The notes under the pieces are model-generated. The model ran no database searches. It was not told the DNA's origin and saw only the letters and a list, made by a program, of their open reading frames with translations. Shown piece by piece: positions 44,466 through 63,100 of a stretch of DNA of 64,000 bases. The position numbers and the translations under genes were made by a program. Within the stretch, counting starts at the first letter, position 1. Every line of letters starts with the position of its first letter. Origin of the DNA: an uncultured virus (IMG/VR IMGVR_UViG_3300048033_000643) (lineage: Duplodnaviria > Heunggongvirae > Uroviricota > Caudoviricetes > Crassvirales); IMG/VR virus record IMGVR_UViG_3300048033_000643; one strand, given 5' to 3'.

Positions 44466-44765
44466 TAGTGACGCTTGTGACAGTTTTTATTGTGCATATT
44501 GACTATATAGTTTTTTTTACTTTATACTTTTTTTTACTATAGTATAATAGGTTTTTTTCTGTCACTTCTGTCACTTTTAGTAAATATAGTAGTTAAAGTA
44601 TTGATAATCAAATAATTAATTAGTGACAGTTTTTAAAAATAGTTGTCACAATAGTGACAGTTTTTGTCACAAAGTAAAGTAAACGTTACATGTTTAAAAA
44701 ATAATTTACTATGCACGCATAACATATTTTTATTTTTGGATTTTTAATTATAAAAAGTTGTCACA
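44466..44765. repeat. cluster of about 9 GTGAC(A)/(T)GTCAC iteron-like repeats in both orientations; candidate replication origin
   Basis: Copies near 44468, 44477, 44560, 44569, 44623, 44644, 44654, 44665 and 44759 in AT-rich non-coding DNA. Confidence 0.65.
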
Positions 44766-45029: not shown

Positions 45030-45196
45030 AAGTTTTTTATTTAGTGTAAATATAGTGAAAATATTTTTGTGTGTTCAGATATATAGAGGTTTTGGGTAAT
45101 ACTACATTATACGCGACATCTCCCCAAAAAGAAAACCAATTTTTTTTTGATCAAGATTAATATTTTTAACTTTTTCTTTCAGATTTTTTAGCTTTT

Positions 45197-45305
45197 CCCC
45201 TGTGCCACCTGTAGCCACACCCCCGCACCCCTACCCGATGCCGTTTAAACGCTCCCCTTCCCCCGTTTCCCGCCCCCGTATACCTTCCCCCGTTGACATT
45301 CCCCC
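45197..45305. other. C-tract-rich block at the strand switch
   Basis: About ten C3-C5 runs within 110 bp of an otherwise AT-rich genome. Confidence 0.7.
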
Positions 45306-45551
45306 AATTAACACACACCACGAAAGGGAAGGTAATAACCCGCCGAGATCACAAAAACCAAAACAAAACGCCCCGAATAACGCCCCATTTAAACACCTGA
45401 TCAACAATGATTTAAACATATTGTTATATATGTAACAAGTAGTTAAATAAAAAATTTCCCTCTGTTGGGTAATGTTTAAACACTATTTGTTTTTTTATTT
45501 GCTTTTATTTGTTTAGTTTTGATAAATAATTAATAATTAAATAATAATAAT

Positions 45552-45755
45552 ATGAAAACTTTTAAATTTATTCAGTCCTCAATTTTAATACTTGCGTTTA
45601 GTGTTATTACCTCGGGCATTATTCAAATCATGTATCATTTAGCTAACGACGTTCAAACGCTTTTACAGGGCGTAATTATGGGTATTTTTTACGCCTTTGT
45701 TTTAGTTCTTTTTGTTGTCGTTTGGTATGGTTTAATTTTAATCATTAAAAAATAA
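45552..45755 (+). CDS. small two-TM membrane protein (first early gene)
   Basis: Two hydrophobic helices. Confidence 0.6.
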   Translation: MKTFKFIQSSILILAFSVITSGIIQIMYHLANDVQTLLQGVIMGIFYAFVLVLFVVVWYGLILIIKK

Positions 45756-45757
45756 TC

Positions 45758-46369
45758 ATGATCGAAACACACACAAACCGCGAAACGTGGCTTTTAAAAG
45801 CTACTAATCAACTTCAAACGAAAGTATTTACACCCGAAAATCTAATCATTCCGCATGACGTAAAAATTTCGTGCGGGTTTGCGATCGGCTCAAGGGCGGG
45901 CGCTAAAAAAATGACTCTTGGCGTATGTCATCCCCGAAGTCATTCAGAAGATTCAGTTAATGAAATTTTCATGTCGCCACAAATTGACGATTCTATTCAA
46001 ACGCTCGGCACATTAGCGCATGAATTAATACACGCAATTGACGACTGCAAGAGCGGACACGGGAAAGCTTTCCGAGACATGGCGCACGCTATAGGGTTAA
46101 CGGGCAAAATGACCTCAACAACTGAAACGCCTGAGTTGGTAGAGATATTAAAAACCATTGTTGCTGATCTTGGCGAATATCCACACGCTAAACTAAACCT
46201 AAACAAGCGCCCAAAACAGGGAACGCGTAACATTAAAATGGAATGCACCGACGACCACGGGAACGGGTGCGGGTTTAGTTTCAGAACGTCGCAAAAAAAT
46301 GTAGACATGATTCAAGTTGTAACCTGCCCCGCCTGTTGTAGCGAAACGAGTTACTTAAGCATAGCTTAA
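45758..46369 (+). CDS. SprT-like zincin metalloprotease with C-terminal Zn ribbon
   Basis: LAHELIHA...GHGKAF...A.AIGL; C..(x)..CG and CPAC. Confidence 0.75.
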   Translation: MIETHTNRETWLLKATNQLQTKVFTPENLIIPHDVKISCGFAIGSRAGAKKMTLGVCHPRSHSEDSVNEIFMSPQIDDSIQTLGTLAHELIHAIDDCKSGHGKAFRDMAHAIGLTGKMTSTTETPELVEILKTIVADLGEYPHAKLNLNKRPKQGTRNIKMECTDDHGNGCGFSFRTSQKNVDMIQVVTCPACCSETSYLSIA

Positions 46370-46391
46370 GAGCGTTTAAACGCCCCCGACA

Positions 46392-46427
46392 CCCCGCCTA
46401 GATAATAGCGCGGGGATTTGGTGGTAG
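46392..46427 (+). promoter_or_regulatory. hairpin plus GGATTTGGTGGTAG leader element, copy 1
   Basis: 14-mer identical to 51694-51707, each following a hairpin. Confidence 0.6.
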
Positions 46428-46448
46428 TAACTTTAATTAAATAAAATT

Positions 46449-47093
46449 ATGATTAGATTTAGTAAAGCGGGAAAAATGCCGTGCCGATCTTGGAGTCTTC
46501 AAGCGTTGGACACTTGCCCCGCGTCCCGTGATAAAAGCGGGGAACTTGTTCCCGCTTGTAAGGGTTGTTATGCCGTCGGCGGTAACTATAGATTTAAAAA
46601 CGTTAAGAGCGTACGCGAAGAAAACCGCAAAGACTGGAAGCGGGACGACTGGGCGCAAGACATGATTGAGGAAATGAATTTAAACGATCGTTTTTTTCGG
46701 TGGTTTGATTCGGGGGACATTTATAGCATTCGATTAGCTGAAAAAATACTAGAAATTTGCACGGCTACGCCGTGGGTTTTTCATTGGATCCCAACAAGAA
46801 TGTACAAACTTTCAAAGTTTCGCCCCATCTTAGAGCGTTTAAACGCATTGCCTAACGTTGTTGTGCGCTATAGTTCCGACGGCGTAAACGGGGAAACCAT
46901 AGACGGCGCGGAATATCAAAGCACAATAATAAGCGACAAAACAAAATTAAATCCGAGTTTCAAAATCTGCAAGGCATACGAGAACGGCGGGAAATGTTTA
47001 AAATGTCGCGCGTGTTGGAGTAAAGAAAATAAAATAATTGCGTACATGGGACACGGCGCAAGCATGAGAAAAGAACAATTAAAAATAAATTAA
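46449..47093 (+). CDS. phage GP88-family Cys-rich protein
   Basis: KMPCRSWSLQA..TCP...CKGCYA..G.Y, FRWFDSGD, HWIPTR, CLKCRACW. Confidence 0.75.
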   Translation: MIRFSKAGKMPCRSWSLQALDTCPASRDKSGELVPACKGCYAVGGNYRFKNVKSVREENRKDWKRDDWAQDMIEEMNLNDRFFRWFDSGDIYSIRLAEKILEICTATPWVFHWIPTRMYKLSKFRPILERLNALPNVVVRYSSDGVNGETIDGAEYQSTIISDKTKLNPSFKICKAYENGGKCLKCRACWSKENKIIAYMGHGASMRKEQLKIN

Positions 47094-47229
47094 ATTAAAA
47101 TTAAAATACTATGAAAAAATTAAATTTTTATGTGTACGTTTTTAAAAGCGGAAATATTGCCCCGTTTGAAATATCAGGGGAAAAAATCATTGGTATATGG
47201 AAAGTATACAAAACTTTTAAAACAAAACT

Positions 47230-47457
47230 ATGAGCAACAAAGCGCAATTTTTCCACAACGTAAAGAAAGCAAAGAGACAACGTTTAAACGCTATCTATAC
47301 TAAAAGCGAATTATTAAAATTCTTCAATGATAAATTTATTGAAGTTTACCCGCATTACAATTACACGACAAAAGAAACGACATTTGAAGTGCGAAGTATT
47401 AAGAATGTAATTTGGGAAAACCACGAGACACCGCAAGAAATAATAAATGAATATTAA
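47230..47457 (+). CDS. hypothetical early protein
   Basis: ORF track; A-rich leader. Confidence 0.55.
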   Translation: MSNKAQFFHNVKKAKRQRLNAIYTKSELLKFFNDKFIEVYPHYNYTTKETTFEVRSIKNVIWENHETPQEIINEY

Positions 47458-47474
47458 TTAAAATAAATAAAATT

Positions 47475-47786
47475 ATGAGTAGTAAACACATTGAATTATC
47501 AAAATTAAATCACATTAAAATAGAGTCTGCAATAGTAAGGGACAGAGTCGGCGAAATCTTAGAGACTTTTTTTCTTCATAAAGACATAGGGACAGACATT
47601 CAAGAAATTACATCTTTATTAATTAACCATAATGTAATGGAAGAAACACAGGTTGAAAGATTAGAAACATTTTTAGAAAGAATCGGTAAAAGTTTATGGA
47701 AGTCAGCAAACGAGTACGACAAAGCAAAAATTGAAGAGCGTTTAAACGTACCGAAGAAAAAAAATAACAGAGGTAAAAGAAAATAA
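47475..47786 (+). CDS. hypothetical early protein
   Basis: ORF track; A-rich leader. Confidence 0.6.
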   Translation: MSSKHIELSKLNHIKIESAIVRDRVGEILETFFLHKDIGTDIQEITSLLINHNVMEETQVERLETFLERIGKSLWKSANEYDKAKIEERLNVPKKKNNRGKRK

Positions 47787-47998
47787 ATAAAAATAATTAG
47801 GAATTAATAATAAATTTGTTATATATTCGTAAAGTAATTAACAACAAAAGATTAATAATCTTAAAGGACAACGAGTAAAGGTCAGAGTTTCCGAGTTTAA
47901 AAATTACGATTGATCTATCAAATAAATAGTAACAAGGTGTAAAATGGTGGCACCTACTCTAAGATAAATTAAAACACCTGTAATTTTAAATAAATAGA

Positions 47999-48352
47999 AT
48001 GAAACTTTTAACTAATGGAATTTTAAAAATTGACGGAAGTTTAGACATAGAAATGTTAACGACTCCCGAAGAATGCGAAGAAATATTAAGTATTTTATCC
48101 ATTCGTCAGCTAGTGGCAAAAATTGCCGACGGGGATATTGAATCTTCAGAACTTGAGCAAGCAAGCGCAGTAATTAAATGCTCAAATATTGATTATATGT
48201 TTGGCTTGTTAAAATCAGGGCAAAAAAATAAAGAGTTAATTTCTTTAGAAGAAAAAATCTATCTAAAACAAATTAGATTAGCTAAAGAAAAAAGGGAAAG
48301 AGTAGAACCTTTCAATAAATTAATCAAGTCTCTGAAAGATTGGGATAAATAA
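47999..48352 (+). CDS. hypothetical early protein
   Basis: ORF track. Confidence 0.6.
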   Translation: MKLLTNGILKIDGSLDIEMLTTPEECEEILSILSIRQLVAKIADGDIESSELEQASAVIKCSNIDYMFGLLKSGQKNKELISLEEKIYLKQIRLAKEKRERVEPFNKLIKSLKDWDK

Positions 48353-48362
48353 AATAAATAAA

Positions 48363-48710
48363 ATGACTAAAATTAATTTAAATAATTATCCGAGAGTGTT
48401 TAAACGCCACACTAAATTTTGGGCTGATTTTCATGACTACATAGAAAATTGTATCAATGGCGAAAAGAAAATGAATTTAGCGAAGTACAATTTAATAGTT
48501 TCTAAAAGAGATGTTTCCCTTTGGACTAAGTTAAATGTAAAACCTCATAGAGGTTGGAAAGTATCGCAAGTAAAAGAATACTTTGGAATCAAAGGAAGTA
48601 AAAAAACTTTGCTAGACAATTTCACAAAAGTGTTTGAGGAGTATATGTTATTAGAGAAAGAATTGACAAAGAAAGCGATGTTAGGAAACGTTCACATGGA
48701 CGCATGGTAA
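48363..48710 (+). CDS. hypothetical early protein
   Basis: ORF track. Confidence 0.6.
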   Translation: MTKINLNNYPRVFKRHTKFWADFHDYIENCINGEKKMNLAKYNLIVSKRDVSLWTKLNVKPHRGWKVSQVKEYFGIKGSKKTLLDNFTKVFEEYMLLEKELTKKAMLGNVHMDAW

Positions 48711-48718
48711 AAAATAAT

Positions 48719-48791
48719 TGCGGGTTAGAGCAGTGGTCAGCTCGTGAGTCTCATAAACTCAAGGTCATAGGTTCGAATCCTTTACCCGCAA
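48719..48791 (+). tRNA. tRNA-Met(CAT), initiator-like, no encoded CCA
   Basis: Acceptor TGCGGGT/ACCCGCA, D stem GAGC/GCTC, anticodon arm TGAGT-CTCATAA-ACTCA, T loop GGTTCGAATCC. Confidence 0.9.
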
Positions 48792-48793
48792 CA

Positions 48794-48930
48794 AAATCAG
48801 TATCTGAGATTAAATCAGGAACTCAGACTAAGCTTATTCCTGAACCAATGCCGTTGCAACGGCTACTTAACCGAACGAGACTTAAAGTCTTTCAGTACAT
48901 TAAGGAACGGGATAAAAGTAAGGCTGATTT
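48794..48930 (+). ncRNA. candidate structured RNA with a pseudoknot, just 3' of the tRNA
   Basis: Closing stem AAATCAG/CTGATTT; TCTGAG/CTCAGA; TCAGGAA/TTCCTGA; GCCGT/ACGGC; AGACT/AGTCT. Confidence 0.5.
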
Positions 48931-48978
48931 CAAAATGTAGAAATAGGCGAGTATTGAAACAAGGGTACTAATTTCTAA

Positions 48979-49017
48979 CGAGGGGTGGCAATACTCCAAA
49001 CCCCTCGGCATTTTTTT
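48979..49017 (+). terminator. intrinsic terminator-like hairpin
   Basis: CGAGGGGT/ACCCCTCG stem followed by T7. Confidence 0.6.
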
Positions 49018-49036
49018 AAAAAGTAAATTATTAATT

Positions 49037-49297
49037 ATGGCAAATATAAATTTCAGTAACGAGACAACAAAGCAATTGTTGGATTGTAAAAACGCACAGG
49101 TCGAGGCGTTACAAAAAGATCGACAAAAGAATATTGATTTTCTAAAACGACTAATAGAATACGTTGAAAATCCAAAACATTCTGAAAACGAGTGGTCAGA
49201 GGATTTTCTAAGTGACGGCGAAATGTTGGATATAGTTGTTGATCAGTTAAAAAAATTCACAGCGATAAGACATCGTTTAAACAACCCCAAATCATGA
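49037..49297 (+). CDS. hypothetical protein
   Basis: ORF track. Confidence 0.6.
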   Translation: MANINFSNETTKQLLDCKNAQVEALQKDRQKNIDFLKRLIEYVENPKHSENEWSEDFLSDGEMLDIVVDQLKKFTAIRHRLNNPKS

Positions 49298-49425
49298 GTA
49301 AAGAGTATATAATTAGTAAACTCAGGGATTTAAGAGACGAAACACCTTGTATAGAGGATTCACAAACTGCCTGTGGGTGCGAAAAGTTTGATGAAATAAT
49401 AGATTTAATACAAAAAAATTTATGA
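49294..49425 (+). CDS. 43-aa hypothetical protein (MSKEYIISKL...CGCEKF)
   Basis: ATGA-coupled at both ends; translated by hand. Confidence 0.55.
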   Translation: MSKEYIISKLRDLRDETPCIEDSQTACGCEKFDEIIDLIQKNL

Positions 49426-49619
49426 GTAAAGAAAAATTTCATTGGGAAGAAGACACTTGGGGTGTAGTTGTTACAGAAGCGGGCGACACATTAGAGATAA
49501 ACTTGCACACTTGCGATGTTTCAGGAAGACAATACATAACTTTTTATCCTGAACTTACGACAGATGTTCATGCTTCAAATAAAGTATTGGCACATTATGA
49601 AGTATTTAAAAAAGATTAA
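49422..49619 (+). CDS. hypothetical protein
   Basis: ORF track. Confidence 0.55.
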   Translation: MSKEKFHWEEDTWGVVVTEAGDTLEINLHTCDVSGRQYITFYPELTTDVHASNKVLAHYEVFKKD

Positions 49620-49620
49620 T

Positions 49621-49959
49621 ATGAATACTTGGATAGATAAAAATAGATTAATAGCAGAATTTATGGGAGTAGACCAAGTTGATATTGATACTTGGTGTGA
49701 TGAATATACCGAATTAAAATACCAAACTTCTTGGGATTGGTTGATGCCCGTAATAGAGAAAATAGAAACTCTTGGTTACACCTTTGAGAAAAACTATCAG
49801 CCAATAGACAAAGATTGGCAGTCATTAATAGTAAAAGGCAATGATATTCTTTATCAAGAATTTGATAACGAAAGCATAAAAGCATCTTACTATGTGGTGT
49901 GTGAATTAATTGCCCAATTATGGGAAAAGAAAATAAGATTTAAAAAAAGTAAATTATGA
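49621..49959 (+). CDS. hypothetical phage protein (NRLIAEFMG...YQTSWDWLMPVIEKIE)
   Basis: Motif I recall from Bacteroidota phages; the 49621 start follows the upstream stop. Confidence 0.7.
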   Translation: MNTWIDKNRLIAEFMGVDQVDIDTWCDEYTELKYQTSWDWLMPVIEKIETLGYTFEKNYQPIDKDWQSLIVKGNDILYQEFDNESIKASYYVVCELIAQLWEKKIRFKKSKL

Positions 49960-50240
49960 AATTAAAAGTAACGAGTTACAGAGAATTTGATACTCGACGA
50001 GGAGTAGGGTATGAATGTAAAACCAACGTAAAAGGTCTTTCCATTTGGAATGATGGCGATGGTGGATGCACTTATTTTAGTGGGAATGAACACACTACAA
50101 GTGGAAAGATAATTTGGGAATATTCCGAAAAATATAATGAGAATCAAATAGAAGTTTTGATTGATGAATTTCTGGGAATAACACCATATCAAAGATTAGA
50201 GGAAGAAAAAAAGTTTAAAGCTAAATTCAATTTATCATGA
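49956..50240 (+). CDS. hypothetical protein (WNDGDGG motif)
   Basis: Coupled ORF. Confidence 0.6.
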   Translation: MKLKVTSYREFDTRRGVGYECKTNVKGLSIWNDGDGGCTYFSGNEHTTSGKIIWEYSEKYNENQIEVLIDEFLGITPYQRLEEEKKFKAKFNLS

Positions 50241-50479
50241 ACGTAAAAGGAACTTATTGTATAACAGAAAGTATGGAACAATATAATCTCGAAATAGATT
50301 ATCAGTATTACCATAAAAAACCTACACATTACGATCCACTTGAAGATCAGTTAGATATAAAAGAAGTGCGTTTAAACGGGATGGACATAACTAAATTCTA
50401 TTGGGATTATCTCGATGAGGATATGTTTATTGATGTTTATGAGTACGCAGTAGAAAATAAATATGAAAATCATGAGTAA
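50237..50479 (+). CDS. hypothetical acidic protein
   Basis: Coupled ORF. Confidence 0.6.
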   Translation: MNVKGTYCITESMEQYNLEIDYQYYHKKPTHYDPLEDQLDIKEVRLNGMDITKFYWDYLDEDMFIDVYEYAVENKYENHE

Positions 50480-50804
50480 AGAAATTAAAACCACTTACCA
50501 ATATTCAGACTATAGGGGTAGTGAAATGATATGGTCAACAGAAGATATAGAGTCAATAGCTAAAAATTTAGATATTAATTATTTAGATTTTGATGACTAT
50601 GATAAAATTCTGCACGATACATTTAAAAATTATGGTGCTGAGATCATGGACGAAGTCAGAGGGTTCTTTGAGGCTCAGGTTTATAATCATGCAAAAGCAT
50701 TACAACACGAACACATTGACTTTGATGATTTCATGCCTATGAAAAAACACATGGAAAAATGTGAAGACATTATAATTGAATCAATTAAAAAGAAAAAATC
50801 ATGA
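50463..50804 (+). CDS. hypothetical acidic protein
   Basis: ORF track. Confidence 0.6.
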   Translation: MKIMSKEIKTTYQYSDYRGSEMIWSTEDIESIAKNLDINYLDFDDYDKILHDTFKNYGAEIMDEVRGFFEAQVYNHAKALQHEHIDFDDFMPMKKHMEKCEDIIIESIKKKKS

Positions 50805-51082
50805 GTATAAAATTAGATAGAATTGTAGCAATTGCTACCGATTTAAAAAACGATACTGAGTGGGTTAACGATAGTCATTCTGAATATGAACACAAAGGTG
50901 TTGTTCATGGCTTAGATAGATTAATATCTCATCTAAAAGAAACTAAACCAACTGATGTAGAGAAGTTTTCTCAAACTCCTTTATATGAATGGTTTAATAA
51001 TTTTGTTGATTATGTACAAGATAATCATAGAAACATTTATAACGAAGCGTGTGACTACGCTGATAAAAAAGAAGAGTTATGA
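50801..51082 (+). CDS. hypothetical protein
   Basis: Coupled ORF. Confidence 0.6.
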   Translation: MSIKLDRIVAIATDLKNDTEWVNDSHSEYEHKGVVHGLDRLISHLKETKPTDVEKFSQTPLYEWFNNFVDYVQDNHRNIYNEACDYADKKEEL

Positions 51083-51216
51083 GACATATTATAGCAATGT
51101 TAGATAATATCTATTTTGAAGTGAAAGAGTACGCACTAGAATCTGAGGATAAAGAAAAGGTTTTAGAAAAAATAAATGAAGTTCAAAATCAAGTAGAAAA
51201 TTTATATGAAAAATAA
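51079..51216 (+). CDS. 45-aa hypothetical protein
   Basis: ATGA-coupled; translated by hand. Confidence 0.5.
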   Translation: MRHIIAMLDNIYFEVKEYALESEDKEKVLEKINEVQNQVENLYEK

Positions 51217-51349
51217 AAAAAGACAATATCGCAGTAATCAAGGGCGAAGTCCAAAAAAAGAAAATGAAATATTTCATCTTCTCAAATTAACTTTAATAGT
51301 ATGCTCTTGTTTCGTTTTACTTTTAACTTTAGCTAAAATATTATTATGA
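51206..51349 (+). CDS. 47-aa membrane protein (KRQYRSNQGRSPK plus TM)
   Basis: Translated by hand; coupled to the 51346 ORF. Confidence 0.6.
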   Translation: MKNKKRQYRSNQGRSPKKENEIFHLLKLTLIVCSCFVLLLTLAKILL

Positions 51350-51573
51350 ATTACAGAAAAGACAATATAGAATTAATAGGAAAAGTTTTAGAATTAGAAG
51401 GGCAAATTAAAGAATTAAAAAAAGTTCTGGTAATATCCGCTAATGAAAGAGATTTTTATAAGAAAAAGTTTTCTCAATGCAATGAGTGGGGCGGATCAGA
51501 GGAGTATGTTTCTAAAGAAGTTCCCTTAAATAAATTACTTTTAGTATTAGGAAATGATAAAAAAATAAATTAA
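51346..51573 (+). CDS. hypothetical coiled-coil protein
   Basis: ORF track. Confidence 0.55.
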   Translation: MNYRKDNIELIGKVLELEGQIKELKKVLVISANERDFYKKKFSQCNEWGGSEEYVSKEVPLNKLLLVLGNDKKIN

Positions 51574-51672
51574 ATTTACCTTGCTATGTATATTATTGAT
51601 CCTGAATTAGAAGAACTATATCAAACACAATTTTTGTTTGTTTAAACGCTTTGTTTGTTTAAATTGCGCCAA

Positions 51673-51707
51673 CCTCTTAGTCAAAAGCTAAGAGGATTTG
51701 GTGGTAG
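51673..51707 (+). promoter_or_regulatory. hairpin plus GGATTTGGTGGTAG leader element, copy 2
   Basis: CCTCTTAG/CTAAGAGG stem then the same 14-mer as 46414-46427. Confidence 0.6.
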
Positions 51708-51725
51708 AAACCATAATTTAATAAA

Positions 51726-52043
51726 ATGAAAAAAGATATTTTTGACTACTACGCAAATTCTGTAGCAAAACAATTTAACATAACCTTAGAGCAGTTATTT
51801 ACTCAAACAAAGGTAAGTCATATAGTAGACGCTCGACAAATTCTTTACTATCTATGTATTGAAAGACCTATTAAAAAAAGTTACATCAAAACTTTTTTAC
51901 AAGAACAAGGATATCAAGTCTCTCATTCAACTATGGAACACGGATATAAAAAAGCAGTTCAGCTTATTGAAAGCGATCCTGATTTTCAGAAAATGATTTT
52001 AGATATTAAACAACGTTTAAACGTAACGTTAAATGATAATTGA
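51726..52043 (+). CDS. DnaA C-terminal (domain IV)-like HTH DNA-binding protein
   Basis: VAKQFNIT.EQL...K...IVDARQILYYLC...HSTMEHG..K. Confidence 0.7.
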   Translation: MKKDIFDYYANSVAKQFNITLEQLFTQTKVSHIVDARQILYYLCIERPIKKSYIKTFLQEQGYQVSHSTMEHGYKKAVQLIESDPDFQKMILDIKQRLNVTLNDN

Positions 52044-54271: not shown

Positions 54272-56683
54272 ATGCAAATAACAATATTCAAGGACATAAA
54301 GGTTACCTCTCAGCCTTTTTATAGAGATGTCCATGTTATTCTAAAAAGAATACAAGAGGGAGCATCTAAAGACTTAGTAAAAAAAATAAGAGCAGAAAAA
54401 AACAAGGAGGCAAGGAATTTGTTAAAACAAAAGCTCCCCGCTGTTTGTTTCAGTGGAAAGTTTACTAAAAGAAATGATAAATCTTTACAAGAACATAGTG
54501 GGTTGCTGTGTTTAGATTTTGATGGTTATTCTACAACTAAAGAGATGTTGTCAGATAAAGAAAAACTTACTAAAAACAAACATATTTATAGTGTATTTGT
54601 TTCTCCAAGTGGAAAGGGATTAAAAGCGTTAGTAAGAATACCTGCTGATCCAGAGAATCATGTCAATTATTTTGTAAGCATTCAAAACAATTTAAACTCT
54701 ACTTATTTTGACAAAACCTGTAAGAATATTTCAAGGGTTTGTTATGAATCATACGATCCGTTAATCTATATTAACGAACAATCAAGTACATGGGACAAAA
54801 TTGAAGAGGAGCAGTACACAGAGGTTACTAAAAACATAGATATACCTACAATCCCAATTACAGATGAAAATAAAATTGTAGATATTTTAAAAAAATGGTG
54901 GGAAAAAAAATATCCTATGGTTGAAGGTCAACGAAATCATAATGTGTTTGTATTAGCTTCAGCATTTAATAGATTCGGTGTTTCTAAAACCTTAGCCGAG
55001 TATGTCATGAATACTTTTTCATCTCAAAATTTCAAACAAGGAGAAATAAAAAGAACTATCAATTCAGCTTATCAAAATGTACAAGACTTTGGCACCCAAT
55101 ACTATGAAGATGAAGACAAGGTTAATTTAATTAAAGCTAAGTTAAAAAGAGGAGTGCCAAAAAAAGAGATCCGATCTCAATTAGAGGAAGAAAGTATTGA
55201 GGTCGGCACAATAGATAATATAATCCATAGGCTTGAGGATGAACAATCAAGTCAAAAATTTTGGTCTATATCAGAAAAAGGTGTTGTAAAAATTATACAC
55301 ATATCGTTTAAACACTTCCTAGAAGAGCATGGATTTTATAAATTTAATCCAGAAGGAAGTAAGAACTATGTGTTTGTTAGAGTAACAAATAACTTAATTG
55401 ATCACACAAGTGAAAAAGAAATTAAAGATTTTATATTAAACCATTTAATAGAGCTTGATGAAATTCAAGCTTATAATCACTTTGCTGAATGTACAAGGTA
55501 TTTCAGGGAAGAGTTTTTGACTTTGCTTTCATCTATTGATGTGTATTTTATTGAAGACACAAAAGGTAGTGCTTATCTATATTACAATAACTCAGCAGTA
55601 AAAATAACATATAATGATATAACCTCTATTGATTATTTAGATTTAGGAGGTTACGTTTGGAAGGATCATGTAATTGATAGACCATACATTAAATGCGAAT
55701 CAACAGACTGCGATTATAAGTCGTTTATAGAGAATATTTGTAATGGCGAAAAAACTAGAATAAACTCAATGAAATCTACGATAGGTTATTTATTACATGC
55801 GTGGAAAAATTTATCCTATTGTCCCGCAACCATATTAAATGATGAGGTTATTTCTGATAATCCTGAAGGTGGTACAGGTAAAGGTTTGTTCATGAATGCT
55901 TTAGGACACATGAAAAAATTAGTAGTGATTGATGGTAAGTCTTTTAATTTTGAAAAAAGTTTTGCTTATCAACTTGTAAGTGCTGACACACAAATACTTT
56001 GTTTTGATGATGTAAGTAAGCATTTCAATTTTGAAAGATTATTTTCTGTAGTTACAGAAGGGTTAACCTTAGAAAAGAAAAATAAAGATGCAATTAAAAT
56101 ACCATTTAAAAAATCTCCAAAAGTATGTATCACTACAAACTATGCTATAAAAGGGAAAGGCAGTTCGTTTGAAAGAAGAAAATGGGAGCTAGAATTAGCA
56201 CAACATTATAATAGAGACAACACTCCGATAAGAGAGTTTGGAAGATTAATGTTTGGGGAATGGGATGAAGATGAGTGGTGTGCTTTTGATAATTACATGA
56301 TAGAATGTTTGCAAATGTATTTACAACATGGTCTTATTAAAAGTGAGTTTGTAAATCTTAAAATTAGAAGATTGTCAGCTGAGACATGCCATGAGTTTAT
56401 AGAGTGGTGTGGGTTGTTAAAAGGAATGAATGAACATGAGTCGTTGCAACTTAATAAAAGATCGAATAAACAAGATTTGTACATTGATTTTATTGAAGAC
56501 AATCCAGACTTTGCTCCAAAAGCAAAGTTAACTATATCAAGAACTAAATTTTATAAATGGCTAATAGCTTATAATCAATTTAAATATGACTGTGATCCTG
56601 AAGAAGGTCGAGACAACACTTCGAGGTGGATTAGATTTAGAAATAAGCATGAACTAGAAGAAAACTTAGAAATAGAATTTTAA
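54272..56683 (+). CDS. primase-helicase (BT4734/VirE-N-like primase, PriCT-like domain, P-loop helicase)
   Basis: KQKLPAVCFSGKF, LDFD, FVSPSGKGLK, DKTCKNISRVCYESYDP, EGQRN, Walker A GGTGKG, FDD, ITTNY. Confidence 0.85.
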   Translation: MQITIFKDIKVTSQPFYRDVHVILKRIQEGASKDLVKKIRAEKNKEARNLLKQKLPAVCFSGKFTKRNDKSLQEHSGLLCLDFDGYSTTKEMLSDKEKLTKNKHIYSVFVSPSGKGLKALVRIPADPENHVNYFVSIQNNLNSTYFDKTCKNISRVCYESYDPLIYINEQSSTWDKIEEEQYTEVTKNIDIPTIPITDENKIVDILKKWWEKKYPMVEGQRNHNVFVLASAFNRFGVSKTLAEYVMNTFSSQNFKQGEIKRTINSAYQNVQDFGTQYYEDEDKVNLIKAKLKRGVPKKEIRSQLEEESIEVGTIDNIIHRLEDEQSSQKFWSISEKGVVKIIHISFKHFLEEHGFYKFNPEGSKNYVFVRVTNNLIDHTSEKEIKDFILNHLIELDEIQAYNHFAECTRYFREEFLTLLSSIDVYFIEDTKGSAYLYYNNSAVKITYNDITSIDYLDLGGYVWKDHVIDRPYIKCESTDCDYKSFIENICNGEKTRINSMKSTIGYLLHAWKNLSYCPATILNDEVISDNPEGGTGKGLFMNALGHMKKLVVIDGKSFNFEKSFAYQLVSADTQILCFDDVSKHFNFERLFSVVTEGLTLEKKNKDAIKIPFKKSPKVCITTNYAIKGKGSSFERRKWELELAQHYNRDNTPIREFGRLMFGEWDEDEWCAFDNYMIECLQMYLQHGLIKSEFVNLKIRRLSAETCHEFIEWCGLLKGMNEHESLQLNKRSNKQDLYIDFIEDNPDFAPKAKLTISRTKFYKWLIAYNQFKYDCDPEEGRDNTSRWIRFRNKHELEENLEIEF

Positions 56684-56685
56684 TT

Positions 56686-57921
56686 ATGGAATTAAGAGAT
56701 TATCAAAAAGAGATTGTTAGATTAGGTGTAAATGTTTTAAAAGAACACAAATTTGTTTATCTTGCCATGGAAGTTAGGACTGGCAAGACACTTACGAGTT
56801 TGAGTATTTGTAAGACTCTTGCTGTTTCTAACGTTTTATTCATTACAAAAAAGAAAGCTATATCCAGTATTCAAGATGATTACGACTTACTCAATCCTGA
56901 TTTTTCTATTACTATTATTAATTACGAGTCGCTTCATAAAATAGATTCATCTCTGTATGATGTTGTAATATGTGATGAAGCTCATGGTATGGGTGCTTAT
57001 CCTAAGCCTAGTAAAAGAGCAAAAGATGTAAAATCTTTAATACAAGTAAACAAAAATCCTTCTGTAATATTATTATCTGGAACACCTACACCAGAGTCTT
57101 ATTCTCAAATGTATCATCAAGTTTATGCTTTACCAGGCAACCCGTTTAAACAGTATAAAAGTTTCTATAAATTTTCACATCAGTACGTTAATATTACACA
57201 GAAAAAAATAGGGCCAACAAGTATTAACGATTATAGTGATGGTAAAGAGTCAATTCTTTATGAAATGAAACCATACATGATTTCTTTTACACAGCAAGAA
57301 GCCGGTTTTAAAACACAAATTACTGAAGAGATATTAACTGTAGCAATGCATGAGTCAACTCATAACATGGTTAAAAAACTTAAAAAAGAAAGAGTTCTAC
57401 AAGGTCAAGTAGAAGTTGTGTTGGCTGACACAGCTGTAAAACTTATGTCTAAAATTCATCAGCTGTATTCAGGAACTGTTAAGTTTGAAAGCGGAAATTC
57501 AGGTGTAACAGATTGGGCAAAAGCTAAATTTATACATGGTTATTTCCAAAACAAAAAGATAGCTATATTCTATAAGTTTAAAAAAGAATTAGAGGCTATT
57601 ACTGACATATTTGGCGAGTCTGTAACTACAGATTTAAAAGAATTTAAAGAAACTAACAAGTGTATTGCTTTACAAATTGTTTCAGGAAGAGAAGGTATTA
57701 GTTTAAAAGAAGCTGAAGCTCTTGTGTATTATAACATTGATTTTAGTGCCACAAGTTACTGGCAGTCAAGAGACAGGATGACTACTAAAGACAGGCAGTA
57801 TAATAAAATTTACTGGGTGTTTGCTGAAAATGGTATAGAGCATCAGATTTATAAAACTGTTATAGGTAAAAAGGATTACACTTTAAATCATTTTAAAAGA
57901 GATTTACTTACACTTAGATAA
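56686..57921 (+). CDS. SF2 (SNF2-like) helicase
   Basis: LRDYQ, RTGKT, DEAH, LSGTP, EGISL, QSRDR. Confidence 0.85.
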   Translation: MELRDYQKEIVRLGVNVLKEHKFVYLAMEVRTGKTLTSLSICKTLAVSNVLFITKKKAISSIQDDYDLLNPDFSITIINYESLHKIDSSLYDVVICDEAHGMGAYPKPSKRAKDVKSLIQVNKNPSVILLSGTPTPESYSQMYHQVYALPGNPFKQYKSFYKFSHQYVNITQKKIGPTSINDYSDGKESILYEMKPYMISFTQQEAGFKTQITEEILTVAMHESTHNMVKKLKKERVLQGQVEVVLADTAVKLMSKIHQLYSGTVKFESGNSGVTDWAKAKFIHGYFQNKKIAIFYKFKKELEAITDIFGESVTTDLKEFKETNKCIALQIVSGREGISLKEAEALVYYNIDFSATSYWQSRDRMTTKDRQYNKIYWVFAENGIEHQIYKTVIGKKDYTLNHFKRDLLTLR

Positions 57922-60175: not shown

Positions 60176-63100
60176 TTAAAAAGGAGATTTAGGCATGCCA
60201 CTGCTTCTCCTATTACTAAATGGAGATTTAGGGCCAGAGGGTTTATTACTTTTTTTAGTTTTATTTTTCTTTTTCTTTTTAGGAATGTAAGTGTTTTCTT
60301 TTGCTTTTCTTGTTTTTTTATAAGCTCTAAAATTATAATCCATTATTGCCCCTGCCTCAAGCGGCAAAAATCCTAATAAATATAATGTGTACATAGGAGC
60401 TTGAGCTAAAAGATCATTTTTATATTTTGGATCCATTTCTACTTCTCTACCATATCTATCTTTATATTTACCTGTTGTCGCTAAAGAAACCATATCCACA
60501 ATTTGCAAGGCTTTTTCCCCACCAATTCCTAACACACCTAACCTATCTAATAACCCTTCAGGCTGATTTACAAAAAATTGAAAAGGATCATCGCTATCAA
60601 ATGTTGCTATTAAAGCGTTAGTAGCTTGTAAAACCTCAGGATTCACTAAAGGAATTGGGCTAACTATATCTGCAAAAGCTTGCCCTTTTCTACCTTTTTT
60701 TCTATTTTCAAATTGCTTTAACAAAGTTTCTTCATCTTCATCTGTTCCTCTTAGCGCCCTGGCCGCTCCAGCTAAAGATTGTGTTATAAATAATCCAACC
60801 GCATTAAATGTTGCAGTTTCTGCAACTAATCCTCCAAGAGATTTTCCAGCTTTTAGTTTATCTTGTACTGTATTTGATTTAGAAAACACTGCACCTAAAT
60901 CATTATACATCCTTGTTTTTTGATTTAATAAAAAGTTTGCAAAAGGAAAAGCTACTTTTCGTAAAACCTGAAGAACTGGATCTTTACTTGCAAACAACTC
61001 CCCTTGTAAATCTACATCCGATGTATTTTGTTGTCTTGCAACCTGTTGAGTGGCATAATTTAACGCCTTATCATTACTCTTGTGCGTACTCCAATCTATA
61101 TTATTAGAATCAATATTTTGTTTTTTTAAACTTTCTAAATAATAAGCCATAAAAGAAGCTCTTGCCGCAAATCTGTCAGGATTTACAAGAAAACCTTGCA
61201 ACCAACCTTTTTGAGCTTTATTAATTACATCCCCAAATTTTCCTGCTTTACCTGTAGAATCTGTTTCTAATCTAGAATCTGTTCCTTCGAGGTTAGTCAC
61301 TGCCTGCACTCCTCTATTAGCGATCTCAACCCCTGAATTATCTAGCCATTTTATTGCATCTGTGTTTGTACCTATTAAATTAATTCCTTTAAAAACAGCA
61401 CTAGGATTATTAATTGTATTTATAAAAGTATTAATTAAAGGAACCATTTGTTTTACATATTGAGTTGGGCCACCAAGAACTCTTGATACACCTAAGCCTG
61501 CAAAACGATTTAAATTTCTTAACCATTTTTCTTGTCCTTTTTGTAAACCTCGTTTTTTTTCTACATATCCTTTAAATCTTTCTTTTATTAACTTCCTGTC
61601 TTCTGTGTTAGGTATAATTTTTTCAAATGAAGGTGAAGACATAAACCCTTTTAATTGTTGAATTCCTGGAGCAGTATTAACATCGGTTAGAGCAGCTCTT
61701 AAATTATTAACATTATTACTATCAAAACCTAAATTTACATATCTATTTGTATTTCCATCCTTATCCATAGGCAAAACAAAAGAAGGTTTTTTAACTTTTA
61801 AAACTCCAGTCTCTTTATCATATACCGTCTCATTAGTGTCAGGCTGAAAAATAGGTTTGTCTAAACTTGGTTCTGATTCTACACCGTCTAATTTAGAAAA
61901 AGAATCAGGTGTATAATTTAAATCTTTACCTAAGGTTCTATTATATATATTTAAAGATACATCTTCTAATTCAGGACGAGCTTTTGACCATTCATTAGTC
62001 ATCCAGTCTACTGCACTTTTATTTATTGGATCAGTTTTTTTATCTACTTCATTTATACTGTTAGAGTTTTTTAACAATTTATCAAAAACTTTTTGATAAT
62101 TTTCTGCTTTTTCGGTTTGACCATTATCTTTTAACTCTTTAATACTTAATTTTACAAGGCCCTTTCTTCTGTTAAATTCTTGGTCTTGTTCCGCTTCAGT
62201 TCCGTCAACTGTTCTTCTCATAAAAGCAAACACTCCTCTTTCAAGATCATTCTCTACATCATTAAATCTTTTTCCATTAGGCATTGTTTTAGTGTTACCT
62301 AATTTTACATTACTTCGTAGTCCGCCTGGATTTATAAATTTATCATAATACGCTTCAGTTATGTTTTGAGCAAGTTTATCAGCTTTAGCAACTCCGTTCC
62401 TTATAGTTGTAAAACCACTTATTTTTTCAAACAACAAAGCTTTGCTTTGAGATTTAAACATTTGTTCTATGCTTTGAGGTATAGATGCTATGAATTTATT
62501 CCAAGCGTTACCTAACATTTTACCTCCAAATAAGAACTTTAAAGGTTTTGCATTTAATTTATTTTCATTATCTACAGCATTTTGCCTTCCTTTAGCAAAA
62601 TTAACGATAGCTTTTAAACCCCCTACACTTTGATTTGTAGCAAAGTTATTCATAGCAAGTAAAGCTTTAGCTCCATCTTCAGACGGTAAATTACTTATGT
62701 CAGTTTTTAAAAATTCAGATACAATTTTCTTGTCTTTTTGAGATATTTTAATTTCTTTACCAGTGAACGGATCTTTTCCTGTTTTAATAATTTGATCAAC
62801 TACAGCTGAATATTTACCAAAAGCATTTTTTAAACCTTTAGCTATTACGCTTTTTTTTGTTTGTCTTAGTTTTGTTTTTTCTTCTGCGCTAAGATTATTA
62901 GTTTCAAAATTATAAAGAATTCTTTGCAGTTCGTTTAAACTAAAATCTTTAGGATCCAAGCCGGTTAAATCTGCAAAAGCTTTTTGTTCCGCTTTAGTTT
63001 TAATTTTATCTTGCAACACTTGTTCTGCTTTAGTATATTTATCTATACTTTCTATATTAAGTGCTTCAGAAATTTTTACATCTCCTTTTTTTGAAGTTTT

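Follow-up and report, generated by a model that had tools for sequence, protein, structure and literature searches.

The window analysed in this work, a stretch of 64,000 nucleotides from an uncultured crassvirus (IMGVR_UViG_3300048033_000643), carries a gene for an SprT-like zinc metalloprotease at the head of its early arm, flanked by copies of a 10-bp palindrome (Table 1). The seven perfect copies of CGTTTAAACG and the four near copies listed in a preliminary description of this DNA have all been found again, with two mismatches at site 2 and one each at sites 7, 8 and 10; four of the 11 sites fall outside credible genes. In 100 dinucleotide shuffles, the perfect word appeared 0.03 times on average and at most once. 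Between 45.0 and 52.1 kb there are 11 GTTTAAAC cores, against 0.42–0.73 expected from local Markov models, and from 52.1 kb to the genome end 3 cores against 0.7–0.8. The 44.5-kb structural arm, described earlier as free of the 10-mer, indeed contains none, and 5 cores against 2.4–2.6 expected. With 11 sites in 6.8 kb and 19 genome-wide, their distribution is graded and not even.

Table 1 The SprT-like gene, the palindrome sites and related features in the window
Feature	Positions	Strand	Sequence	Context
Site 1	45242..45251		CGTTTAAACG	Array start, upstream of early genes; counterparts in relatives
Site 2	45473..45482		TGTTTAAACA	Intergenic; Bacteroidota -7-like box 40 nt downstream
-7-like box	45514..45521	+	TAGTTTTG	Presumably of the putative first early promoter (Bacteroidota consensus)
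SprT-like zinc metalloprotease gene	45758..46369	+		203 aa; second early-arm ORF; predicted array binder
C-terminal basic segment and 4-Cys zinc ribbon	46211..46336	+	PKQGTRNIK...C..C..R.S...CPAC	Residues 152-193; predicted DNA-recognition module
Site 3	46373..46382		Perfect	4 nt past SprT stop codon
Site 4	46836..46845		Perfect	GP88-family gene 46449-47093 (ERLNA); core kept in 13/13 orthologs
Site 5	47281..47290		Perfect	ORF 47230-47457 (QRLNA); core kept in 10/10 orthologs
Site 6	47739..47748		Perfect	ORF 47475-47786 (ERLNV); core kept in 8/8 orthologs
Site 7	48397..48406		TGTTTAAACG	ORF 48363-48710, frame VFKRH; core kept in 5/5 orthologs
Site 8	49274..49283		CGTTTAAACA	ORF 49037-49297 (HRLNN); core kept in 6/6 orthologs
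Site 9	50369..50378		Perfect	ORF 50237-50479 (VRLNG); core kept in 7/8 orthologs
Site 10	51639..51648		TGTTTAAACG	Intergenic; overlaps TTTG -33-like box of a putative promoter (TAAATTGC at 51660)
Site 11	52014..52023		Perfect	End of DnaA-C-like gene 51726-52043 (QRLNV)
Gradient tail	55305..55314		CGTTTAAACA	Primase-helicase gene (IHISFKHFL)
Gradient tail	57143..57152		CGTTTAAACA	Helicase gene (PGNPFKQYK)
Gradient tail	62932..62941		CGTTTAAACT	May be chance

The reading of six in-gene sites as Arg-Leu-Asn, from which selection on the DNA had been suspected, is correct, and site 7 is read in a different frame. Across 156 ortholog comparisons, synonymous codons inside the sites had not changed in 152; for the same residues outside the sites, the figure was 3498 of 4339, the relatives compared being not independent of one another. 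Because synonymous codons within the sites stay unchanged across orthologs, selection on the array, as judged from these alignments, acts on the DNA and not on the protein, and the window sites behave like a predicted protein-binding array. Site 11 is kept in one of four aligned orthologs, where the other three alignments stop short or lack the site. Our literature search found no paper describing this palindrome site.

The SprT-like protein matches Pfam SprT-like (PF10263; E 2.8e-6, 27.6 bits against a curated cut-off of 25.6) and phrog_6361. Among 87 SprT-family sequences, H88, E89, H92 and H101 are invariant, that is, the HEXXH motif is intact and the third ligand is present. A simple repressor would not need the invariant catalytic Glu, and this counts against the repressor reading given below. 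In the structural model (pLDDT 90.9), the top Foldseek match is the SPRTN protease domain (E 3.9e-3, probability 0.97), with 13–15% identity and a TM-score of only ~0.33; IrrE and CapP are weak matches. A perfect site lies at or just past the SprT stop codon in the window and in 7/7 SprT-bearing groEL relatives, and 90 of 160 loci from viruses and metagenomes have a core no more than 50 nt from this stop.

The gene and the array occur together. Among 78 groEL-anchored loci, many of the others having short flanks, the 7 with the perfect 10-mer are exactly the 7 with an SprT homolog. Of 25 near-complete records, 24 have 0–5 cores and no full-length SprT homolog (their lone partial match is weak, with E 1e-4, and lies within a 2285-aa frame), and the 25th is a chimeric contig that ends before the SprT position. 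The array-bearing phages form two groEL clades with array-free kin between them. When the query ORFs of at least 45 aa from G000 and G008 were compared, SprT was, among the matches listed, the only ORF common to both array clades and missing from array-free records, and no separate DNA-binding repressor gene travelling with SprT was found among these listed ORFs. In the surroundings of 80 viral SprT loci we counted 358 cores against 11.2 expected, and near 80 metagenomic loci 382 against 15.4. The pairing recurs in phages of 30–74% GC, and the same or a nearly identical word stands beside SprT in phages of Actinomycetota and of Alpha-, Beta- and Gammaproteobacteria.

In addition, the KKQxTR zinc-ribbon module is retained in array-bearing homologs, and it is swapped out in cellular homologs, cluster EB phages and Mesyanzhinovviridae, all without sites except L472. 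Among dereplicated proteins, an array lies beside 65 of 74 with the module and 10 of 40 without it, kinship being uncorrected; the latter ten are mostly near-variants of the module pattern, and the nine module-bearing proteins without a significant array include L062 and L283, with only 2 sites. The array is absent from 27 of 28 cellular homologs that lack the module. L472, a cellular-clade homolog, has 5 sites grouped nearby, which counts against the repressor reading. Since the palindrome pairs with a single gene across unrelated phages, it is likely, on this co-occurrence, the binding site of the SprT-like protein. Since selection on the DNA maintains the array, and the array accompanies the SprT gene, the sites are likely bound by the C-terminal zinc ribbon of the encoded protein, and we consider direct binding by this protein highly probable.

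The binders named in the preliminary description do not follow the array. Of 17 array-free records, 14 have the wHTH protein (41940); the DnaA-C protein (51726) is found in 13 of 18, and array-free relatives have the putative ejected proteins too. The window contains two helix-turn-helix-type proteins, and neither tracks the array. These distributions speak against the idea that the sites serve internalisation, being bound on the first-entering DNA by the wHTH, the DnaA-C protein or a virion protein ejected with it, although site density does drop with distance from the early-arm start in all six array-bearing genomes mapped. The genome termini were searched for and could not be located. Because cultured long-tailed phages have sites spread evenly over the entire genome, a role on first-injected DNA is not general, and we give internalisation hardly any credence.

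Could the partner of the sites instead be a host protein of nucleoid, partition, methyltransferase or Chi-like type, with SprT merely co-occurring because both suit the same hosts? A shared host could explain the array in two separate groEL clades, and a paired-motif scan gave many matches in Bacteroidota, but these are largely short tandem repeats. The search of Flavobacteriales chromosomes proposed earlier gave no enrichment in 251 genomes (119 with zero copies, a maximum of 16 in 4.7 Mb), a sample outside which the true host may lie. Nor did the MAG binned alongside a close relative show any enrichment (counts of 216 and 192, with 202 and 206 for the control). In lysogens, the sites concentrate in prophage-sized stretches (16 of 20 in G313, 10 of 23 in G314). 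With no host-chromosome enrichment and with sites concentrated in prophages, the suggested hijack of a nucleoid or partition protein is not borne out, and as the word accompanies SprT in phages of several phyla, we find a host partner of any such kind very improbable. The PmeI/MssI site, HIP1, DNA uptake sequences, Chi, matS and parS are host-chromosome words or avoided restriction sites. Our site resembles them as a short over-represented word that can be written into coding sequence; unlike them, it is not enriched in the tested host chromosomes and goes with a gene of the phage.

In cultured temperate phages of Arthrobacter (AZ) and Microbacterium (EH) there is a variant site, GTKTAAAC, in 16–22 evenly spread copies, with overlap of promoter-like sequences. 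Turbid, integrase-bearing Floof and Percival (EH) have 17 and 16 sites, while the lytic EB phages Dismas, Armstrong, Eden and Kieran, of the same host strain, have 0 and carry a KSRSGKSIK module in place of KKQxTR; this contrast represents a single evolutionary event. For the AZ and EH phages no repressor has been identified, and Powerpuff lysogens are immune (PMC8758107, PMC7302621). Liebe, with a natural SprT frameshift, is reported to form clear plaques and Maureen turbid ones (10.1101/2025.05.26.655371), though three more positions differ between them. Dispersed sites, 16–37 per genome, occur in AZ, EH, UNTPL and R26L. The 21 sites of R26L, a phage described without lysogeny genes (PMC11806900), count against the repressor reading. 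Among the 71 window proteins, a Pfam scan detected no integrase or ParA/ParB, which counts against that reading too.

Intergenic positions hold 22 of the 56 sites of Yang, Caron and Emotion (6.5–7.9% expected), and 13 of the 56 lie just past a TAnnnT hexamer or inside the -35/-10 spacer (random 0.2–0.5%), a pattern defined after data inspection. By sequence, the promoter-overlapping sites include the SprT promoter in Yang and Emotion. The window offers two suggestive cases with putative promoters, at 45473 and 51639. G006 and G007 have TAnnTTTG with a site 51 nt upstream, comparable to site 2; the putative promoter at site 10 precedes the DnaA-C, recombination and replication genes, and its counterpart in G007 has no site. 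Over 35 low-GC SprT loci, no positional link between sites and TAnnTTTG boxes was found. The near-palindromic variant is present in both orientations within unidirectional genomes (14/6 in Yang, 15/22 in UNTPL).

The sites of Yang, UNTPL, R26L, G000, G008 and G009 are spaced more evenly than chance would give (P ≤0.007); those of G006, G007, G010, Mica, Emotion and ep3 are not significantly so. Regular spacing, together with the 2–4 sites bunched at the array start in marine phages, would suit an SprT-like protein that binds the sites and organises the phage DNA for circularisation, integration, replication or packaging, by looping or by clearing proteins off ends and att sites, with only an indirect effect on lysogeny. 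Floof, Percival, Zeta1847, Liebe, Maureen and Caron have a site within ~100 bp of the left end, and Yang and Caron one beside the integrase gene. However, the end-proximal sites also sit just upstream of the terminase operon, the left ends of Yang and Emotion have no nearby site, and most relatives of the window phage manage packaging and replication while lacking both the gene and the sites, so such a role appears quite improbable.

Even spacing may also suggest cover over the length of the DNA by the SprT-like protein as a site-bound, tethered protective protease, which would cut host machines that coat phage DNA or track along it (type I restriction motors, RecBCD/AddAB/AdnAB, silencers), the leading DNA needing the densest cover. 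The invariant HEXXH and H101, the nearest fold being that of SPRTN, a cleaver of DNA-bound proteins, the presence of SprT in phages without lysogeny genes, and a distant homolog annotated 'antirestriction protein' (annotation only) favour this role. So does the gene's place at the early-arm head, where anti-restriction genes often lie. On the other hand, lytic EB phages on the EH host have no sites, temperate-phage sites lie at promoter-like sequences, lost protection would poorly explain clearer plaques, and a PADLOC search gave no match. We regard protection as unlikely.

Overall, early-gene repression is the best supported of the four functions offered in the preliminary description, which was right in its DNA-level selection as well and missed the real correlate, the SprT gene. 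Our preferred explanation, which we hold with moderate confidence, is that the SprT-like protein is an array-bound repressor and roadblock, and that the array is operator/stoperator-like and belongs to a protease-type repressor. The C-terminal zinc ribbon would bind the sites, probably as a dimer, and the bound protein would repress and block transcription, damping phage gene expression. In temperate relatives it may be the immunity repressor, with operator-type binding at promoters and stoperator-type binding inside genes. The window phage would have acquired the SprT gene at the early-arm head, and sites would then have accrued most densely where host RNA polymerase starts; this might bring an early shut-off, silence kin that superinfect, or allow a dormant carrier state. 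The HEXXH site could provide an off-switch, through DNA-triggered self-cleavage freeing the zinc ribbon, as SPRTN autocleaves, or could cut stalled polymerase; this step is the weakest of those proposed.

A bolder reading, tentative and on balance doubtful, is that SprT-like proteins across phyla are sequence-programmed, DNA-tethered metalloproteases that dock on regularly spaced GTKTAAAC sites along the phage genome, silence it through blockage or cleavage of RNA polymerase, and switch off by DNA-triggered self-cleavage. If this were true, they would be a one-protein, RecA-independent lysis-dormancy switch and would supply the immunity repressor that AZ and EH phages seem to lack, and integrase-less marine phages would gain a dormant or superinfection-immune state.

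Among metallopeptidases tied to repression, IrrE/DdrO, CapP/CapH and ImmA/ImmR consist of separate protease and DNA-binding repressor, with the protease as anti-repressor. There too a zinc metallopeptidase of related fold controls a repressor, but in the SprT protein the protease and the predicted DNA-reading module form one polypeptide, and clear plaques accompany gene loss. SPRTN and Wss1 are DNA-dependent metalloproteases with DNA-triggered activity and autocleavage (PMC5128726; PDB 6mdx/6mdw), and the phage protein shares with SPRTN the SprT-type HEXXH fold and the order of protease domain, then zinc-binding module; SPRTN autocleavage is, by analogy, the model for the proposed switch. SPRTN is described as responding to DNA and to its structure, and the text consulted reports no sequence motif (PMC5128726), whereas the phage family co-varies with an exact 8-bp sequence.

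Repressor-stoperator systems are known in Cluster A mycobacteriophages (L5, Bxb1) and in phage R4 of Streptomyces (PMC6550527, PMC10276819, PMC9283540). In the Cluster A type, 20–30 repressor sites are dispersed over the genome, most away from promoters and some serving as operators at lytic promoters and at the promoter of the repressor gene itself. The stoperators there are 13–14 bp long, lack dyad symmetry and follow the direction of transcription; the repressor binds them as a monomer, blocks transcription and confers superinfection immunity (PMC6550527, PMC10276819). Cultured SprT relatives similarly have ~16–37 genome-wide sites with a minority at promoters, a site upstream and a site downstream of the regulator gene, and a link to temperate lifestyle. 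Unlike in Cluster A, the site is palindromic or nearly so, 8–10 bp long and present in both orientations; most copies lie within coding sequence, and the word hardly differs across host phyla. It is paired with a zinc-ribbon HEXXH metalloprotease rather than an L5 gp71-type repressor, and in the window phage site density is graded along the early arm. The cluster AZ SprT-like protease (Lizalica gp46, Maureen gp49) belongs to the same family, with ~39–40% identity. Section 14 of the AZ account proposes it as a DNA-binding candidate required for efficient lysogeny, with a predicted SPRTN-like function; the section names no binding site and refers to repeats only as 'data not shown' (10.1101/2025.05.26.655371). 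The GTKTAAAC sites, the promoter overlap and the EB/EH contrast are new beside it.

For the AZ and EH phages, in which no repressor has been identified and which form turbid plaques or immune lysogens, these results name a candidate protein and an exact site, testable in harmless cultured hosts, and a natural frameshift pair exists (Liebe/Maureen). If true, there would be a new repressor family combining an SPRTN-like protease with a zinc ribbon, and a widespread gene annotated only as 'SprT-like protease' would gain sequence specificity. The array is also an example of a 10-bp site entering dozens of unrelated coding sequences following a single gene acquisition. In uncultured marine phages that look strictly lytic, the gene together with its site array could mark a dormant lifestyle.

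The seven perfect copies of the palindrome CGTTTAAACG and the four near copies that the preliminary description had reported among the early genes are all found in the window, and the array is a real feature. In 100 shuffles of the sequence the 10-mer appears 0.03 times on average and at most once. For the core GTTTAAAC, the early stretch of 7.1 kb holds 11 copies against 0.42–0.73 expected, the structural arm (44.5 kb) 5 against 2.4–2.6, and the rest of the phage genome 3 against 0.7–0.8. The 116 early sites give the consensus Y-GTTTAAAC-R; five bases out, purines and pyrimidines are also biased symmetrically, though less strongly. Site density drops from 8–18 over the 5 kb that follow the groEL start to 0–3 per 5 kb beyond 15 kb. 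A tolerant or degenerate core has been rejected: in six genomes the early arm shows no excess of cores with one mismatch.

Positions of the array and of neighbouring or related features (window coordinates unless another record is named)
Feature	Position	Remark
Perfect CGTTTAAACG sites	45242, 46373, 46836, 47281, 47739, 50369, 52014	
Near copies	45473, 48397, 49274, 51639	
SprT-like zinc metalloprotease gene	45758–46369 (+)	203 aa
TGTCAC/GTGACA-type hexamers	44468–44765	nine in ~300 bp upstream of groEL
Start of a full-length related contig	~45152	19-nt overlap
CpG-rich stretch	45100–47900	
GC hairpins	46389–46430; 51668–51710	each followed by GATTTGGTGGTAG and lying just 3' of an array site
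GP88-family gene	46449–47093	follows SprT in some relatives only
tRNA-Met(CAT) gene	48719–48792	inside the array
GTTTCACGTGAAAC palindromes, Arthrobacter phage Emotion (L528)	4450, 6607, 18003, 19682, 20044, 25116, 44987	seven, perfect
10-mer cluster, Flavobacteriaceae MAG (L200)	G003:C3:24302-24645	three perfect 10-mers in 340 bp; five in the whole MAG

With the sites masked, the CpG observed/expected ratio is 0.9–1.6 where the early arm begins (the CpG-rich stretch and its equivalents in relatives), compared with 0.5–0.65 in late genes and only 0.11–0.23 at the early-arm start of the sister phages G261 and G268. CpG richness has been rejected as the cause of the array, since some array-free relatives are raised too and 11 cores are beyond its reach; host-specific word selection seems to act on the early arm. 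The hexamers upstream of groEL, of which TGTCAC/GTGACA counts 20 in the whole window, possibly mark an origin, packaging or operator region.

Seven of the 11 sites lie within genes, where six code for Arg-Leu-Asn and one is in another frame. The preliminary description took this usage as a sign of selection on the DNA, and synonymous conservation agrees: when orthologs taken from 19 related sequences are compared, the synonymous codon stays the same in 152/156 cases inside sites, compared with 3498/4339 for the same residues elsewhere. In addition, in five array-bearing genomes, peptides that can be written with the core do use it in 54/58 early-arm instances and in 35/104 instances in the late parts; in ten array-free genomes the figure is 16/245. 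Selection acts on the DNA of the sites.

The phage genome record has 65,869 bp. Its minus strand carries the structural genes and groEL/groES; its plus strand carries, from ~45.5 kb, the arm with the early, recombination and replication genes. Among the terminase matches listed from the phage collection, all are Flavobacterium, Cellulophaga, Tenacibaculum and Maribacter phages (47% identity) except one uncultured record (74%), and we infer a host in the Bacteroidota and a virion with a short tail. One Flavobacteriaceae MAG (G311, contigs C10, C9 and C21; L441) contains a full-length close relative and pieces of related phages on separate contigs, which hints weakly at the host and is possibly a binning artefact. 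A Pfam scan of 71 window proteins detected neither an integrase nor ParA/ParB. Assembled contigs have no end pile-up at genome termini, the overlap in the related contig resembles an assembly join, and RNA contigs lie on the groEL side and barely reach the early arm. Since genome ends were not found, the probable first-injected status that the preliminary description gave to the array DNA is an assumption; that the sites work as a ratchet for genome entry is the least probable of the readings considered, behind host-protein binding.

Through GroEL we have fetched 78 related loci, and the perfect 10-mer is present in seven. The whole records of the array-bearing relatives G006–G010 contain 15–46 cores against 0–2 for the reversed control, and 24 of 25 other near-complete records contain 0–5. 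The 25th, G300 (L063, 105,284 bp), has structural and replication genes twice and the array only in its first 44 kb, which groups with G008; by this gene content it looks like two related phages joined in one chimeric record. In a quick GroEL tree, array-bearing phages form two groups with array-free kin between them on well-supported branches. Some array-free relatives (L055, L066, L068/L069/L071, L015) have other repeated words in the early region upstream of groEL, namely GTGTCTTnnAAGACAC-type palindromes (~5), TTTGTAACTGAC (~10), AGCCGAGC (5–6) and GGTA[AG]GTA repeats.

The three binders suggested beforehand do not follow this distribution and have been rejected on that ground: the wHTH protein is present in 14/17 array-free records, the DnaA-C protein in 13/18, and the putative ejected proteins do not go with the array either. 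The suggestion of a host word fares no better, for 251 sampled Flavobacteriales genomes lack enrichment of the 10-mer (119 have zero, the maximum is 16 in 4.7 Mb), and it has been rejected after a paired-motif scan of bacterial genomes yielded scattered matches and tandem repeats. Binding of the sites by a host protein is very unlikely, ranking behind a DNA-organising role. Separately, Bacteroidota intergenic tracts of degenerate 7–8 bp tandem units (CGTTTAAA, CGTTAATC, CGGATTAA) yield the 10-mer as a by-product (L084, L088, L097, L103, L108, L121, L123, L183, L191, L196, L198, L199).

On the other hand, the SprT-like gene does track the array, matching exactly the seven 10-mer-bearing loci among the 78. 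Among 50 records searched with a profile, true SprT homologs turned up only in G283, with 22 cores, and G299, with two cores, one within the SprT gene and one at its stop; the chimeric record ends before the expected SprT position. In the window and 7/7 relatives, the SprT stop codon coincides with a perfect site or is closely followed by one. The G299 gene with two sites, the 11 early sites of the window and the 46 genome-wide in G009 make it look as if SprT entered this lineage laterally, at the front of the early arm.

An 87-sequence SprT alignment was then used to fetch the best 80 loci each from viral, metagenomic and genomic sets (some redundant, four repeating earlier records), and cores were counted from −3 to +4 kb of the gene. 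Viral loci contain 358 cores against 11.2 expected (47/80 loci at p<0.001), metagenomic loci 382 against 15.4 (54/80), and genomic loci 29 against 6.3 (5/80). Core density climbs ~1 kb ahead of the gene and falls off beyond it, and in 90/160 viral and metagenomic loci a site lies ≤50 nt from the SprT stop. The site varies as GTGTAAAC in high-GC phages, CTTTAAAG instead of GTTTAAAC is enriched at two loci (L340, L355), and RTTTAAAY at one small clade (L302, L316, L319, L330, L356) with the module KKQPTRLVK. Two actinobacterial genomes have 16/20 and 10/23 sites within one 37–44 kb stretch, which in G313 holds terminase, polymerase, SprT and integrase homologs.

In the protein, H88, E89, H92 and H101 are invariant across the alignment. 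In the AlphaFold2 model (pLDDT 90.9, pTM 0.75), a less confident linker around residues 141–160 joins a protease domain to a small module at the C-terminus. The top Foldseek match is the SPRTN protease domain (E 3.9e-3, probability 0.97, TM 0.33), followed by IrrE, abylysin and CapP, none of the matches reaching E 0.001; viral structure matches are mostly SprT-like proteins. A sequence search of solved structures gave nothing significant, PADLOC and NCBIfam no usable match, and an Atlas search with the C-terminal 64 residues only leads below 0.9, one being a cluster with 15% Zn_ribbon_SprT. SPRTN itself has a DNA switch and regulatory autocleavage (PMC5128726).

The predicted DNA-recognition module comprises a basic KKQxTR segment and a four-Cys zinc ribbon. 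Leaving out 8 rows with <2.5 kb of DNA and ignoring kinship, arrays accompany 65/74 proteins with the module versus 10/40 without, and most of these ten are near-variants of the module pattern. The cellular clade (28 rows of 122 dereplicated proteins, mostly Burkholderiales) keeps the protease core, but its KKQxTRxxK segment is gone, as is the R[ST] further along; 27/28 are without arrays.

The homolog occurs in 164 cultured records, of which 19 were examined. Yang, Caron and UNTPL have CGTGTAAACG, or its reverse, as the top over-represented word of the sequence examined, and R26L and Mica have CGTTTAAAC. The site counts of phages read as having an intact module range from 7 to 37 (Yang 20, Caron 19, UNTPL 37 in 50 of 54.5 kb, Emotion 17, Zeta1847 22, Liebe 17, Maureen 17, Floof 17, Percival 16, R26L 21, Mica 7, Arya 7); ep3, placed in the same group, has 4. 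A KSRSGKSIK module goes with 0 in Dismas, Armstrong, Eden and Kieran and 1 in Franklin22, and a decayed zinc ribbon with 0 in Epa5 and 1 in CN2. Floof, Percival, Dismas, Armstrong, Eden and Kieran share one host strain. Eden (L527) also has an unrelated promoter-like leader, TAnAAT/TAgGAT-AGA.TATGAACA, seven times on both strands. Emotion forms turbid plaques and has no integrase; its GTTTCACGTGAAAC palindromes match the bacterial parS consensus, and it may be kept as a plasmid by borrowing host ParB.

Sites are spaced more evenly than random in Yang, UNTPL, R26L and the array-bearing G000, G008 and G009 (P ≤0.007), marginally so in Caron, and not significantly in Mica, Emotion, ep3, G006, G007 and G010. 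That they serve to organise the DNA is improbable, and stands behind a protective protease. In Yang, Caron and Emotion, 22/56 sites are intergenic, and 13/56 lie behind a TAnnnT hexamer or inside a −35/−10 spacer, a pattern picked after inspection.

We favour an operator- or stoperator-like array for a protease-type repressor. The EH phages Floof and Percival are turbid and integrase-bearing, and the EB Microbacterium phages Dismas, Armstrong, Eden and Kieran are listed as lytic (PMC7302621), an EB/EH contrast amounting to a single event. Arthrobacter AZ and Microbacterium EH phages have no identified repressor, and Powerpuff lysogens are nonetheless immune (PMC8758107). An AZ preprint puts forward the SprT protein as candidate, gives no site where it discusses the protein, and reports clear plaques for Liebe versus turbid ones for Maureen, where Liebe, with three other changes besides its SprT frameshift, is not a clean mutant (10.1101/2025.05.26.655371). 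Against the repressor, no lysogeny genes are recognisable in the window's phage or R26L. Two window sites sit at promoter-like boxes; in 35 low-GC loci of mixed hosts, the sites have no link to TAnnTTTG, the Bacteroidota promoter-box consensus. These missing genes, the lack of a box link, the single-event contrast and the unclean mutant leave a protective protease tethered to the DNA as the main rival, though an unlikely one.

In the simplest account, the C-terminal module of SprT would bind the palindrome, and the bound protein would repress initiation at some sites and block elongation at the rest. These proposed roles are like those of Cluster A stoperator repressors (PMC6550527) and of the R4 repressor system (PMC10276819). 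The likeness lies in the proposed working; the array differs in site symmetry, orientation and protein family. For the site word, its variants and the SprT pairing, nothing relevant was among the matches listed in the open-access literature, subscription journals being outside the scope. The roadblocks with the greatest effect would be those closest to early promoters, in keeping with the density gradient. Genome entry of T7 is driven by transcription; if entry here is driven likewise, roadblocks at the sites would also hold up related phages that superinfect. As for the catalytic site, it may act as an off-switch or may cut the stalled polymerase. The RTTTAAAY group with its KKQPTRLVK module is a natural pair for mapping specificity residues, and the array would be categorically new if protease activity is part of the silencing.
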